Positions 13-44,145 of a stretch of 50,368 bases of DNA are shown here, one piece after another. The position numbers were made by a program, and so were the translations under genes. Under the pieces are notes generated by a model that saw nothing but the letters and a program-made list of their open reading frames with translations, had not been told where the DNA came from and did not search any database. The stretch is taken from the sequence record PP971806.1, one strand, 5' to 3'. This DNA comes from Escherichia phage GaoY1-9D. Numbering within the stretch: position 1 is the stretch's first letter; each line of letters begins with the position of its first letter.

Positions 13-714
13 ATGCATAAAAAAGAAATTGAGTCGTTACAGGCGCGTTTAAATGCCTTAGAATCGAATCAAAAACATCAAATTTCTGTGCCGTCAATTA
101 TCGCCGATCATGTTGAGCAAGCAATCCTCAAGGCGGTGGCTGGGAAGTTGACTCACGAAGCATGTGAGCAATTGCTCAAGGATTTGCCTAAGTACAATGG
201 CGATCCGTGTCACAGCACTGTCGATGCATTCGTGAATGAGCTTGCGGCTGGCCCAGGGAAAACCGTCGTAGATGATGGCGCAAAGTTTGATTATCTGACG
301 AAAGATGCCAAGTTCACTTTCGGTAGCAATTTCGGTGAAGGCAAGGAGCTTACCATGTCAACCGCGAAAATGGAACCACGAAGCGGCGGTTACGGTTATA
401 GCAATCGTCACGTATGGGCGGTGGGTGAATGTGAATCAGCACGCGATCGCAAGGTGGCTGTTTGCTATTACGTTGGCGGGAATGGCTTCATCAAGGGTGG
501 AGAATATGAGTATGAAGTAGACGAGTGTGAAACAGGTCATAAACCGAGCGTTATTCACATCACGCAAGATGCCTTCCTCTCTGGACTAAAAGGTGATTAC
601 CGCTGGAGAGCATTGAAAGTTGGTAATGTAATAAATGCTAATGGTGAGCTAGTTGACGCATACGCAACACTAAATATTAATGGCGGAGTAGTGGCTCAGT
701 TCTATATTAAATAG
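13..714 (+). CDS. hypothetical protein, 5' end cut by window; true start is the ATG at 50149 in the duplicated end
   Basis: ORF in frame with 50149..50368 through the 127-bp terminal duplication; stop TAG lies inside the cassette dyad. Confidence 0.55.
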   Translation: MHKKEIESLQARLNALESNQKHQISVPSIIADHVEQAILKAVAGKLTHEACEQLLKDLPKYNGDPCHSTVDAFVNELAAGPGKTVVDDGAKFDYLTKDAKFTFGSNFGEGKELTMSTAKMEPRSGGYGYSNRHVWAVGECESARDRKVAVCYYVGGNGFIKGGEYEYEVDECETGHKPSVIHITQDAFLSGLKGDYRWRALKVGNVINANGELVDAYATLNINGGVVAQFYIK

Positions 715-775
715 CACGTTTTGTTAAAAGGGGATTCATGCTGACTGGTATAATCCCCACATCAACCACACGAAA
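712..775 (+). promoter_or_regulatory. intergenic cassette copy (dyad TAGCACGTTTTGTTAAAA, hairpin, TGGTATAAT, box, RBS)
   Basis: dyad 712-729; inverted repeat GGGGATT/AATCCCC 730-758 containing TATAAT 749-754; ACACGAAAGG before ATG 788. Confidence 0.6.
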
Positions 776-787
776 GGAAGTTAACCA

Positions 788-1327
788 ATGAATCAGATGT
801 ACGCCATGATTAAGCACCACTTGAACACAGACGCAATCAATAAGCCAGTCTACCTGTTTGATTACGACGGAACTTTATCTGACGGATCGCATCGTTTGCA
901 TAAGTTGCCTACAAAGGATTTGCACCTTACTGAGTCATGGTCTGAGTTCAATCGACTTTCAGAATATGATCAGCCTATCGAGTCAACTATTCAGGTAATG
1001 AACAGCCTGTTTGACTCCGGCGCGTTCATCATTATTCTTACAGGGCGTTCAGACGAGGTGTGTGAGATTTCTACTCAGTGGCTTCATGATGCTGGAGCAA
1101 AATATAACGTTATGGTCATGCGCCAGGCAAGTGATAACCGAAAGGATACCATCATCAAAGAGGAGTTCTTGCGGTATATTGGCTTGCATCAAATTACGGC
1201 AGCATTTGATGACAGTCCTAACGTAATCGCTCACTTTCGAAGCCTAGGCATCACCACATACCAGGTGTGTGACTATGGCGATAAACTACATGCTGGCGTC
1301 GGATCGCATGGCGTGCATCATAAGTGA
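788..1327 (+). CDS. HAD-superfamily phosphatase (possible polynucleotide 3'-phosphatase)
   Basis: N-terminal motif YLFDYDGTLSDG (DxDGT); cassette upstream. Confidence 0.6.
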   Translation: MNQMYAMIKHHLNTDAINKPVYLFDYDGTLSDGSHRLHKLPTKDLHLTESWSEFNRLSEYDQPIESTIQVMNSLFDSGAFIIILTGRSDEVCEISTQWLHDAGAKYNVMVMRQASDNRKDTIIKEEFLRYIGLHQITAAFDDSPNVIAHFRSLGITTYQVCDYGDKLHAGVGSHGVHHK

Positions 1328-1447
1328 CGATATACGAACATAAATTCAGCAGCAGGGGCGTTGATATGCTCCTGCACTATGTAGACGAAAAATAGGCAAA
1401 GCTCATGCTTAAGACGCATGGCGGCACAATAACGAGGATTAACACAA

Positions 1448-2065
1448 ATGTCAAAGATTATCATTCTCAACGGTCCAGCTTCGGTTGGTAAAGACACGAT
1501 CGGCAACGAGCTCGCAGCGAATTACAAATGCATCCCGACCAGCTTCAAGCGTCCAATGTTTGAGATTGCAGCATCCATCCTTGGTGCCAGGGCTTTCTCA
1601 AAGTTCATCACCGCATACGACGACCGCGACCAGAAAGAGATGCCTCATGACTTTCTCGGTGGCAAGACCTGCCGTGAGTTCATGATCTGGATTAGCGAAA
1701 CAGTGGTCAAGCCGCTTTTTGGCAATCAGCAGTTCGGCAAATTGATGAGCGAACATATCCAGCTGTGTGATGAAGGCTTTAGCTTCGTTTGCACTGATGG
1801 CGGATTCCCAGATGAAGTAATCAGGCTCGTTGAAGATGGTCACGATGTTACCCTGGTCCGCCTGTTCATGGATGGGAAGACGTTCGAGGGAGATAGTCGT
1901 GATTATATCCGCATCAAGGAATCGCATTTCCCTGACTATAAGAAATATAACGAGAATGACGTTCATCTTGTGAATGGCGATATTGACGGCGGCGTCATGG
2001 CGGTTGTTCGCGCCTGCGGTATCCGTCCTGCAATCGACGAGTGGGCCGACGATATTCCTTGGTAA
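1448..2065 (+). CDS. P-loop kinase (polynucleotide or nucleotide kinase-like)
   Basis: Walker A GPASVGKDT near N-terminus; RBS AGGA upstream. Confidence 0.55.
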   Translation: MSKIIILNGPASVGKDTIGNELAANYKCIPTSFKRPMFEIAASILGARAFSKFITAYDDRDQKEMPHDFLGGKTCREFMIWISETVVKPLFGNQQFGKLMSEHIQLCDEGFSFVCTDGGFPDEVIRLVEDGHDVTLVRLFMDGKTFEGDSRDYIRIKESHFPDYKKYNENDVHLVNGDIDGGVMAVVRACGIRPAIDEWADDIPW

Positions 2066-2066
2066 A

Positions 2067-2130
2067 TAGCACTAATTGCTAAACCCGCCCCGGCGGGTTT
2101 TGTTATAGTTAGTTCACACCAAACGAGAGG
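2067..2130 (+). promoter_or_regulatory. intergenic cassette copy with terminator-like hairpin
   Basis: TAGCACTAATTGCTAAA 2067-2083; CCCGCC/GGCGGG hairpin then TTTTGTTATAGT; AAACGAGAGG before ATG 2139. Confidence 0.55.
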
Positions 2131-2138
2131 AAAGCAAT

Positions 2139-2297
2139 ATGATTACTATCAACCTGTCAGACAAGCAAGCTGCCGAGCTTAAAGAGGCGATTTCTATAAA
2201 GAAAATTCGATACGGCCAGCACGATCGCCCTGAAGTTATGAGGGAAGTAATTAAACAGATCAACAATCAACAATTTGACGAAAACGAAGGGGAATAG
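2139..2297 (+). CDS. small hypothetical protein (52 aa)
   Basis: ATG 2139 with cassette and RBS upstream; below the ORF-track size cutoff. Confidence 0.45.
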   Translation: MITINLSDKQAAELKEAISIKKIRYGQHDRPEVMREVIKQINNQQFDENEGE

Positions 2298-2299
2298 CC

Positions 2300-2698
2300 A
2301 TGAAGTTACGTTGCATAAAGATTAATCCATGCGCATCAGAATGGTTTAAGAAAGACTTTCAGGTTGGCAAGGTGTATGAGGCAGAGCGCGGTCGTGATAT
2401 CTACACAGGCACAGTAGATGTTATTGGTGGTAATGAAGGTATTGCTTGGTGCACTATACAGAAAGGAAGCAAATTCAACCTAAGCATCGGAAGTGGACCT
2501 GCTGTCACGTTCGAGCTGGTAAAGGGTCCGCGCCGCCTGGTTGTAACTGAAAAACGTGTAACTGGCGTATTGAACGACAAGCGAAAATTCCGCCGCATGT
2601 GCCGCCAGTACGGTAAGCTTCGATTCACTGAGCCTGGGATGTTCTGCTTTATCGCATGGCGAGCAATGAAAAAGAATGCACGAAATTACCAGCGATAG
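2300..2698 (+). CDS. hypothetical protein
   Basis: ORF with RBS GAAGGGGAA; stop TAG is first triplet of next cassette. Confidence 0.5.
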   Translation: MKLRCIKINPCASEWFKKDFQVGKVYEAERGRDIYTGTVDVIGGNEGIAWCTIQKGSKFNLSIGSGPAVTFELVKGPRRLVVTEKRVTGVLNDKRKFRRMCRQYGKLRFTEPGMFCFIAWRAMKKNARNYQR

Positions 2699-4316: not shown

Positions 4317-4324
4317 TTCATTTA

Positions 4325-4349
4325 AGCATCCTTCGGGGTGCTTTTTTTA
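4325..4349 (+). terminator. intrinsic terminator
   Basis: hairpin AGCATCC-TTCG-GGGTGCT then T7. Confidence 0.7.
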
Positions 4350-4359
4350 TGACTGCGTG

Positions 4360-4388
4360 TTGACAATGATATATGGGTGCATTATTAT
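4360..4388 (+). promoter_or_regulatory. sigma70-like promoter
   Basis: TTGACA 4360-4365, 17-bp spacer, TATTAT 4383-4388. Confidence 0.55.
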
Positions 4389-4429
4389 TAACTCATCGGG
4401 GCGACCCACTAACCAGAAGGAGATTCAAA

Positions 4430-4666
4430 ATGATTACATTAAAAGCAATTCACAAAGATGGTAGCGAACAGGTTTTTGAGGTTAAGAATTTCGGCTACAG
4501 AGCAACGCAAAACCGAATTGATGCCGTTGATTGTGATTGCCAGCCATTCAGTATTTACCTTAACGATGACTCAGTTTCTGTTGTGTACGCAATGAATTCG
4601 AGAGGGGCAACTATTGGCAAGTACTTTCTTAACGATCAAGTAGGGCTACGAGATTATATTTCTTAA
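4430..4666 (+). CDS. hypothetical protein (moron-like gene)
   Basis: ATG 4430 with RBS AAGGAG; own promoter and flanking duplicate terminators. Confidence 0.5.
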   Translation: MITLKAIHKDGSEQVFEVKNFGYRATQNRIDAVDCDCQPFSIYLNDDSVSVVYAMNSRGATIGKYFLNDQVGLRDYIS

Positions 4667-4671
4667 ATACA

Positions 4672-4696
4672 AGCATCCTTCGGGGTGCTTTTTTTA
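4672..4696 (+). terminator. intrinsic terminator (duplicate of 4325..4349)
   Basis: identical hairpin AGCATCCTTCGGGGTGCT then T7. Confidence 0.7.
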
Positions 4697-4745
4697 TGCC
4701 TGCAATCTGGTATAATCCCTTCCTATTCAACAAGAGGATGAAACC

Positions 4746-27751: not shown

Positions 27752-28201
27752 ATGCCACACGTAATCACTGGACAGATCCGCAAAGCACCATTCACCAAAG
27801 AAGGAAGTAACAATAATGGTCGCTGGAAAATGTACGCCGTCGAACTGTCAGAGCGTATGAAGATTCGCAATCAACAGGGCGAGGATGAGACGGTTTACAG
27901 TAACTACCGCGCTACGTTCTTCGCAAAAGAAAACGTTATGCAGTGGTATGATGAAGCGTTCCAGGAAGGTAAGGTTGTATCAATTTCTGCCGACACGCTT
28001 CACTTGGCGTCACGCCAGGGTAATGACGGCACTGTTTATGTAACCGCAGAGATGATCCGGCCTCAGTTGCAATTCAGCCAGCGTGAGCCATCACAGCAGG
28101 GCCAAGGCCAGCAGCAACAACGTCAGCAGCCTCAGCAGCAACAACGCCAGCAGCAGCAACCTAATCAATCAATGCAATTCGACGATGACATTCCATTCTA
28201 A
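27752..28201 (+). CDS. ssb: single-stranded DNA-binding protein
   Basis: OB-fold-like N-terminal region, Gln-rich linker, C-terminal FDDDIPF. Confidence 0.7.
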   Translation: MPHVITGQIRKAPFTKEGSNNNGRWKMYAVELSERMKIRNQQGEDETVYSNYRATFFAKENVMQWYDEAFQEGKVVSISADTLHLASRQGNDGTVYVTAEMIRPQLQFSQREPSQQGQGQQQQRQQPQQQQRQQQQPNQSMQFDDDIPF

Positions 28202-37225: not shown

Positions 37226-38356
37226 ATGGCTATTCAAAAAATCACTGACGAACAATTCATTGCTGAGCGCGAAGCTGGTAAAACACTCCGCCAGATTGCC
37301 CAGGAATACGGGATGAACATCCGCACCGTAGAGCAACGCTCAAGCAACCTGGCCAAGAAAGGTCACGGACACGGTAACAAAGCTGTTGCTAAATATGTTC
37401 CTGATGGATTCGCTGTAAAAGGCACGTCAACCATGATTGATGCGGAAGGTAACGAGAAGATCCGGTGGGTTAAGACCTCAATTGATAATGATCGCCTTGA
37501 GGTTCTGATGGAGCAGGCTCGTGAGGCATTCTGCTCAGAGTTGCCGAAGGCAGATGTGGTAATCCATTCAGGCAATGAGGTCAATTCTGAATTAATGACT
37601 CTTTACCCTATTTTCGATATCCATATTGGCATGATGGCACATCGCCATGAATCTGGTGAGAATTATGACACTAACACGGCAGAGAAATTAATGGGGTCAT
37701 ATTTTGACCACGCAATCTCTGTATCACCAGCCTCAGAGAAAGCTGTGATTTTAGTTGGTGGAGACTTCCTCCACTCTGATGGGTTGGAGGCGGTAACTCC
37801 AGCAAGCGGACACTGCCTTGATCAGGATAGCCGATATGCTAAGCTAGTTTATGTTGCGATTCGCTCAATTCGTGGTGCAGTAGAGAAGATGCTTAAAAAG
37901 CATAAAAATATCGAGATTCAGGTTATAGAAGGAAATCATGACCAAAGTGGAATGATTTGGCTTCGCGCAGCAATTGCTGCATTTTATGAAAACGAGAATC
38001 GCGTGTTTGTTGATACCAGTCCGGCAATCATGCATAAAACAAGATTTGGCTCAACACTACTTGGCTACACGCATGGTCACACCATGAAGAAGGCGGAAGG
38101 GAGATTGGCGGCAATGGCAACTGACTACCGTAAAGACTTTGGCGAATGTGAGTTTGTCTACTGCCACTCCGGCCACTTCCATCATGCAACTGTTACAGAA
38201 TGCACGCTTGGCATTGACGAAGTTCACCCAGCCCTGGCTAGTAAGGACGCATATGCAGCTCGTGGAGGTTGGAGATCATATCGTCAAGCGGCTGCAATCA
38301 TCTATCACAAAGAGTTTGGCGAGGTTGGTCGCCACATTTATCGCCCAGGTATGTAA
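37226..38356 (+). CDS. HTH domain fused to calcineurin-like metallophosphoesterase
   Basis: N-terminal TLRQIAQEYGMNIRTVEQ; motifs DIH, GGDFLHSD, EGNHD, GHTHG, HSGHFHH. Confidence 0.55.
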   Translation: MAIQKITDEQFIAEREAGKTLRQIAQEYGMNIRTVEQRSSNLAKKGHGHGNKAVAKYVPDGFAVKGTSTMIDAEGNEKIRWVKTSIDNDRLEVLMEQAREAFCSELPKADVVIHSGNEVNSELMTLYPIFDIHIGMMAHRHESGENYDTNTAEKLMGSYFDHAISVSPASEKAVILVGGDFLHSDGLEAVTPASGHCLDQDSRYAKLVYVAIRSIRGAVEKMLKKHKNIEIQVIEGNHDQSGMIWLRAAIAAFYENENRVFVDTSPAIMHKTRFGSTLLGYTHGHTMKKAEGRLAAMATDYRKDFGECEFVYCHSGHFHHATVTECTLGIDEVHPALASKDAYAARGGWRSYRQAAAIIYHKEFGEVGRHIYRPGM

Positions 38357-43929: not shown

Positions 43930-44145
43930 TTAGAACGGTATTCCGTCATCAAATTTTAAGCGGTAGTCGAAGTCATCCCCGATCCCATCTACTGACTGGT
44001 TGCTTTCGCTTTCCAGATCCATATCCATAACGCCCAACGCGTCATCGAGTTCGATGCATCCGTAAGCAACCTTGAGCGCCCACTCTTCATTAAGTCCGGC
44101 TTCAAGTGCCGCGCGGTGGCGGCTCCAGAAATTATCTTGATGCAC
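43930..44145 (-). CDS. small acidic protein with SSB C-terminal-like tip (FDDGIPF)
   Basis: 71 aa, Asp/Glu-rich, ends KFDDGIPF; compare SSB end QFDDDIPF at 28201. Confidence 0.5.
   Translation of the reverse strand: MHQDNFWSRHRAALEAGLNEEWALKVAYGCIELDDALGVMDMDLESESNQSVDGIGDDFDYRLKFDDGIPF

Follow-up and report, generated by a model that had tools for sequence, protein, structure and literature searches.

The closest described counterpart of the gene pair considered here, which lies near the start of the 50,368-nucleotide sequence of Escherichia phage GaoY1-9D (PP971806.1; by the window we mean this whole stretch), is found in phage Rao1. The purified deoxynucleoside monophosphate (dNMP) kinase of Rao1, R1DNK, phosphorylates dAMP, dGMP and dCMP efficiently, dTMP as well, and dIMP weakly; the K15A substitution abolishes its activity, deletion of dnk lowers dATP in Rao1 infection, and the family of deoxynucleoside monophosphate kinases (DNKs) is a known trigger of the Kongming defence (bioRxiv 10.1101/2024.12.20.629578). 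Phages T1 and TLS recycle nucleotides from the host chromosome, which they break down (PMC11447400). According to the KanT1 paper, a "PNK" and a dNMP kinase are the commonest genes after a "DNA repair exonuclease", and a role in nucleotide supply is proposed there (PMC13164509).

The window belongs to a T1-like coliphage (Drexlerviridae, Nouzillyvirus), and the two genes and the gap between them are arranged as follows.

788..1327, plus strand: stand-alone HAD phosphatase of the Pnkp-phosphatase / T5 Dmp clade (phrog_415), 179 residues
1328..1447, no strand: intergenic spacer of 120 nucleotides
1448..2065, plus strand: very probable DNK of the T4 gp1 / Rao1 DNK family, 205 residues

The phosphatase frame begins with ATG, and its coordinates count in the stop codon. 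An earlier note on this DNA had pointed out a DxDGT phosphatase signature (FDYDGTLSDG) in the first open reading frame and a Walker A motif (GPASVGKDT) in the second, and both are indeed present, at residues 24-33 of the phosphatase and 9-17 of the kinase. The two frames are genuine genes rather than chance frames, since they match Pfam and PHROG profiles and each has hundreds to thousands of phage homologues. In the closest genome, that of Escherichia phage PH1062 (Drexlerviridae, Nouzillyvirus), window positions 600-2300 are matched at 95% identity, the phosphatase protein being 100% and the kinase 95% identical. We read the pair as a small accessory unit of nucleotide metabolism (salvage) in a T1-like phage, and would put the probability of this reading at roughly 0.65. 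Because the kinase appears to be an ordinary phage dNMP kinase, the pair most likely recycles host DNA rather than mending cut tRNA.

We are highly confident in assigning the kinase to the DNKs, and the decisive evidence is that R1DNK, a purified dNMP kinase, is 51% identical to it (BLASTP, E 6e-53, with the R1DNK sequence taken from the supplement of bioRxiv 10.1101/2024.12.20.629578). The window kinase matches phrog_139 ("dNMP kinase"), a family with a characterised member, at 3.6e-41, as T4 gp1 does at 1.8e-65 (sequence verified against 1DEK); it is 43% identical to the DNK of KarlJaspers (Bas06), and its predicted structure is nearest to T4 gp1 (1DEK). The gp1-like fold extends over the full length of the model, the P-loop (G14-K15-D16-T17) has the GKD(T) form with Lys15, and R76, E84, K88, D117, E123 and D149-S150-R151 are invariant. 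A 5'-OH polynucleotide kinase domain of the Pnk type (AAA_33-like, with a general-base Asp after strand 2) is not found in this protein. Pfam and NCBIfam gave no usable family for it, and sequence and profile searches of the PDB returned P-loop-level matches to guanylate kinases and AAA ATPases and nothing closer. The family is large: grouping at 50% identity gives 3,524 clusters, and its members stand in 1,427 phage records. The phrog_139 match and the R1DNK identity thus favour what the earlier note had offered as its second choice, a dNMP kinase in a pair that serves nucleotide metabolism. The profile hidden Markov model searches that it had proposed divide its first choice in two: the phosphatase falls with HAD_PNKP and phrog_415 and is Pnkp-like as supposed, while the kinase goes to phrog_139 and not to Pnk.

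Linkage of the two genes was surveyed in 80 viral loci holding relatives of the kinase at 40-93% identity. The phosphatase gene is 5' of the kinase gene and on the same strand in 64 of the 80, with the order never inverted; the two abut in 22 of these linked loci, and a gap of 77-134 nucleotides, as in the window, is seen in eight. A contiguous trio of phosphoesterase, phosphatase and kinase, in that order, occurs at 24 of the 80 loci, and in Kagunavirus ST20 (Guernseyvirinae, another subfamily) the genes of the trio overlap. There are also natural fusions of 403-461 residues, in which an N-terminal HAD_PNKP part and a C-terminal DNK part are joined by a conserved linker (...GPELHG...). They come from three independent samples, on phage contigs of 23-61 kb, and take two forms that are 37% identical to each other; the fusion genes are at 6001-7212 of L002, 6001-7242 of L003 and 1470-2711 of L004 (proteins P0141 and P0271; also P0147). 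Directly 3' of the genes for P0141 and P0271 is a phosphoesterase gene of phrog_704; a ligase had been considered for this 3' gene and was rejected on that finding. The window has a member of the same family.

37226..38356, plus strand: calcineurin-like metallophosphoesterase, annotated "DNA repair exonuclease", 376 residues, phrog_704 at 1.6e-149

It lies 35 kb from the pair and is 85% identical to Rao1 gp56. Inspection by eye finds the calcineurin-like motifs DIHIG, GGDFLHSD, GNHD and GHFHH, and some 60 residues at its N-terminus resemble a helix-turn-helix; it has no Pfam match, and its match by sequence in the PDB is weak and not significant.

The phosphatase matches Pfam HAD_PNKP at 2.5e-18 (67 bits, cut-off 27.6) and phrog_415 over its full length at 3.3e-62. 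A sequence search of the PDB matched T4 Pnkp and Pnkp1 at about 1e-6, and the fold is nearest to the Pnkp phosphatases. The sequence of the T4 Pnkp phosphatase domain was verified before it was aligned with the window protein, and all eight of the T4 residues that we take to be essential have counterparts.

T4 Pnkp D165: window D25
T4 Pnkp D167: window D27
T4 Pnkp R176: window R36
T4 Pnkp R213: window R87
T4 Pnkp D254: window D120
T4 Pnkp K258: window K124
T4 Pnkp D277: window D141
T4 Pnkp D278: window D142

The catalytic set of the HAD 3'-phosphatase domain is thus D25, D27, T29, R36, R87, D120, K124, D141 and D142, with the DxDGT nucleophile and the equivalents of R176, R213, D254, K258 and D277/D278 all present. 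To judge from these residues the protein is a HAD phosphatase whose active site is intact, and it stands without a kinase part, a kinase domain of the Pnk type being found neither in it nor in its 120 best homologues. Stand-alone phosphatases of the phrog_415 type are widespread in phages. Since phrog_415 also holds T5 Dmp, a characterised 5'-dNMP phosphatase, sequence does not fix the substrate.

A salvage pathway built on these enzymes would begin with breakdown of the host chromosome into fragments and nucleotides. The phosphatase would clear blocking phosphates, either 3'-phosphates on DNA fragments or those of 3'(,5')-phosphorylated deoxynucleotides, after which the phage metallophosphoesterase "exonuclease", with host exonucleases, would release 5'-dNMPs. 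The DNK, presumably of broad specificity as has been shown for its homologue, would turn these into deoxynucleoside diphosphates (dNDPs), from which host Ndk would make deoxynucleoside triphosphates for phage replication. We infer this order of steps, and the substrate of the phosphatase within it, from what is established for the genes, namely the family membership of the proteins, their intact active sites, the genetic linkage, the fusions and the activity of the 51%-identical kinase homologue. For the specific role given here to the phosphatase we would accept slightly less than even odds.

Several observations weigh against salvage as the explanation. The decisive biochemistry comes from a preprint and concerns the homologue R1DNK, not the window kinase, and deletion of dnk in Rao1 carries no measurable fitness cost (bioRxiv 10.1101/2024.12.20.629578), so that salvage would be at best accessory. 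A 5'-dNMPase activity of the Dmp type, if the phosphatase had it, would oppose the kinase. In 34 of the loci surveyed the two genes are 0.7-2.2 kb apart with other genes in between, 16 of the 80 have no phosphatase within the available flanks, and in TLS the pair is four genes apart. Nor is the pair obligatory, as the phosphatase gene is missing from AugustePiccard, JeanPiccard and DTL: AugustePiccard (MZ501051) retains the last 24 phosphatase codons beside an intact kinase gene, the DNA match in JeanPiccard (MZ501080) starts at the very end of the phosphatase gene and a kinase is annotated, and in DTL (MG050172) the match starts likewise at the very end of the phosphatase gene and a truncated kinase of about 127 residues is left. 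These losses point to both genes being dispensable and on their way out in some lineages. Finally, the conserved gene order could largely reflect common ancestry within one phage family.

If ancestry were the whole explanation, the two genes would be independent neighbours, with a synteny that is inherited and uncoupled from function, and the phosphatase would clean DNA 3' ends in replication, recombination or repair, so that host Pol I and LigA could act at nicks blocked by a 3'-phosphate. The variable spacing, the other genes or HNH endonuclease found between the two in many relatives, the occurrence of either gene without the other, and the abundance in phages of stand-alone phosphatases of this family are all what such an arrangement would lead one to expect. 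We nevertheless consider it unlikely, because the two proteins are naturally fused in another phage lineage, nothing separates the genes, which overlap or abut, in Kagunavirus or at 22 of the 80 loci, and their order is constant in 64.

Another possibility is suggested by the company that the phosphatase keeps in phrog_415. T5 Dmp belongs to this family over its full length (3.6e-57, against 3.3e-62 for the window phosphatase), and among the proteins tested it is the sole characterised full-length member; the T4 Pnkp phosphatase domain has a PHROG of its own, phrog_505, and reaches phrog_415 at 2.6e-24. A profile of the window phosphatase family, built from 66 sequences, was compared by hhalign and matched both T4 (probability 97.9%, E 5e-13) and the Dmp family (96.2%, E 2.5e-9, 139 columns). 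The match to Dmp takes in some 14 residues inserted behind motif I, which are conserved in the window phosphatase, present in Dmp and absent from T4 Pnkp. Pairwise, the window phosphatase and T5 Dmp align marginally (E 0.038), with D25 opposite the T5 nucleophile D22, so that the nucleophile Asp is conserved. Foldseek searches of viral models did not tell Pnkp-like and Dmp-like relatives apart. By these comparisons the window phosphatase is placed between two characterised enzymes, the Pnkp 3'-phosphatase and the T5 Dmp 5'-dNMPase. It could accordingly be supposed that the window enzyme is a (deoxy)nucleoside 5'-monophosphatase that trims dNMPs such as dAMP or dIMP and so tempers or hides the DNK, as an anti-Kongming device or to balance pools, and the Kongming authors do report frequent co-occurrence of Dmp homologues with DNKs. 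This seems quite improbable to us. Rao1 is sensitive to Kongming despite having a 70%-identical phosphatase, gp57, beside its DNK; dAMP rises 2-3 fold in Rao1 infection, and rescue needs T5 Dmp in trans. T1 and TLS reuse host nucleotides rather than discard them, and joining 5'-dNMPase and dNMP kinase in one protein would make a futile cycle. The direct and structural similarity of the window phosphatase is also greater to the Pnkp phosphatases, whereas T5 Dmp does not reach the threshold of Pfam HAD_PNKP.

Least probable of all is the earlier note's first choice, a split Pnkp acting as an RNA or DNA end-healing counter-defence module. In such a scheme a host defence nuclease would cut tRNA or DNA, the phosphatase would take off the 2',3'-cyclic or 3'-phosphates, and the P-loop kinase would phosphorylate the 5'-OH ends for a ligase to reseal. 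In its favour, the phosphatase is genuinely homologous to that of T4 Pnkp and keeps every catalytic residue, adjacency and the phosphatase-kinase fusions superficially recall a bifunctional end-healing enzyme, and the R1DNK assays did not include oligonucleotides, but the kinase is of the wrong family for end repair (phrog_139, with 51% identity to R1DNK and no Pnk-type domain), neither the 41 open reading frames of at least 140 residues nor the PH1062 annotation holds a ligase, dedicated (Rnl) or otherwise, or a candidate of its size, and searches of the whole window for tRNA genes and Rfam families found none. A reading of the genes as a defence system (PADLOC) was rejected because their context is the early region of a lytic phage.

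Returning to the kinase as a component of nucleotide salvage, its C-terminus resembles those of two other proteins encoded in the window.

2039..2062, plus strand: C-terminal tail of the kinase, EWADDIPW, like the C-terminal tip of SSB (DDDIPF)
27752-28201, plus strand: phage SSB, C-terminus QFDDDIPF
43930-44145, minus strand: conserved 71-residue protein, phrog_9085, C-terminus KFDDGIPF

The ending FDDDIPF is a conserved SSB-Ct interaction motif (PMC5872125), and endings like the SSB tip occur in three of the 539 open frames of at least 40 residues in the window, namely these three. A disordered linker, whose length varies, precedes the tail of the kinase (residues 197-205 have a predicted local distance difference test score, pLDDT, below 50). 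Among relatives of the kinase the DDIPW tail persists to an identity of about 42%, and it is absent from the DNKs of Rao1, KarlJaspers and VAC2. This pattern suggests that the tail may mimic the SSB C-terminus and dock on SSB-binding proteins. One could go further and imagine a physically coupled machine that takes host DNA to dNDPs, made up of the phosphoesterase, the HAD phosphatase and the dNMP kinase, with the kinase tethered in this phage through DDIPW to SSB-binding partners (exonucleases or the replisome); a single polypeptide does in fact combine two of these members in some phages. We regard this as a doubtful extension of the salvage reading. Were it true, dNMPs would be caught at the site of their production or use, and the 71-residue protein with the FDDGIPF end (43930-44145, minus strand) would dock likewise.

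Two putative signals bracket the pair.

746..754, plus strand: extended -10 promoter-like motif TGGTATAAT, located by pattern search, 34 nucleotides 5' of the phosphatase start codon
2081..2100, plus strand: hairpin resembling an intrinsic terminator, AAACCCGCC CCGG CGGGTTT with a T-rich tract behind it, which closes the two-gene unit

In the annotation of ETEP102 a promoter is placed at the position equivalent to 746-754 and a terminator at the same position as ours, 3' of the ETEP102 kinase. The pattern search found TGGTATAAT three times in the window where two matches are expected, and because the motif is not enriched the promoter at 746-754 stays a candidate. No promoter or terminator was found on the plus strand of the spacer (1328..1447), and a single transcript, starting near 750 and ending at the 2081-2100 terminator, probably covers phosphatase and kinase. 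In the relatives compared, vB_EcoM_50EP among them, the corresponding spacer measures 0-135 nucleotides or else holds an HNH homing endonuclease or one to five small genes. Directly 5' of the pair is a frame of 233 residues (13-714, plus strand), a hypothetical protein in PH1062, for which no PHROG match was found at E <=1e-3. Further along, identical terminator-like hairpins, AAGCATCCTTCGGGGTGCTT with a T-run, stand at 4324-4343 and 4671-4690 (plus strand) on either side of a small open reading frame (4373-4666), just 5' of terS, and a second copy of TGGTATAAT is at 4708-4716, again 5' of terS.

The pair has been annotated before, for example in ETEP102, and has been discussed in print. What we add is modest: the fusions, the membership of T5 Dmp in the same family as the so-called PNK, the linkage statistics, and the SSB-tip-like tail of the kinase. 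The finding mainly corrects annotation. Thousands of phage records, that of ST20 for instance, call the kinase-less phosphatase a "polynucleotide kinase", and the true kinase is variously labelled as hypothetical, as a P-loop NTPase, as phosphomevalonate kinase or as the large subunit of "replication factor C". Because the kinase is in all probability a DNK, the phage should be detectable by Kongming (KomABC); DNK-bearing phages are its predicted targets, which is relevant to the choice of T1-like phages for therapy. In several phage lineages the phosphatase has a dNMP kinase and a phosphoesterase as its genetically linked partners.

It is useful, finally, to set the locus against the known systems. 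Compared with T4 Pnkp (1LTQ / 5UJ0) and Pnkp1 (4XRP), the window phosphatase has no Pnk kinase domain, the neighbouring kinase is of another family, and there is no partner ligase; T4 Pnkp in turn lacks the insert after motif I. T4 gp1 (1DEK) is 15% identical to the window kinase and has an insertion of 50 residues relative to it, and a shallow profile aligns the first 37 columns only. T4 gp1 is specific for hydroxymethyl-dCMP (hmdCMP), dGMP and dTMP, whereas R1DNK accepts all four dNMPs. T5 Dmp is like the window phosphatase in its phrog_415 membership, in its DxDGT...HR start and in the insert after motif I, and T5 also has a DNK, presumably with the two genes not adjacent; it differs in its length of 244 residues, in a C-terminal extension, and in being undetected by Pfam HAD_PNKP.

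Rao1, a T1-like phage of the same family, comes closest. Its in vivo data argue that the Drexlerviridae phosphatase, unlike T5 Dmp, does not deplete dAMP. The Rao1 pair comes directly after the phrog_704 phosphoesterase gp56, near the lysis genes, with a gap of 50 nucleotides, whereas the pair in the window is in the early region 5' of terS, its two genes 120 nucleotides apart and the phosphoesterase 35 kb away, and its kinase has an extra DDIPW tail that R1DNK lacks. The order of the genes is the same, however, with a phosphatase annotated "polynucleotide kinase" (gp57) followed by R1DNK (gp58); the identities to the window proteins are 70% for gp57 and 51% for gp58, and the P-loop lysine K15 is common to both kinases.
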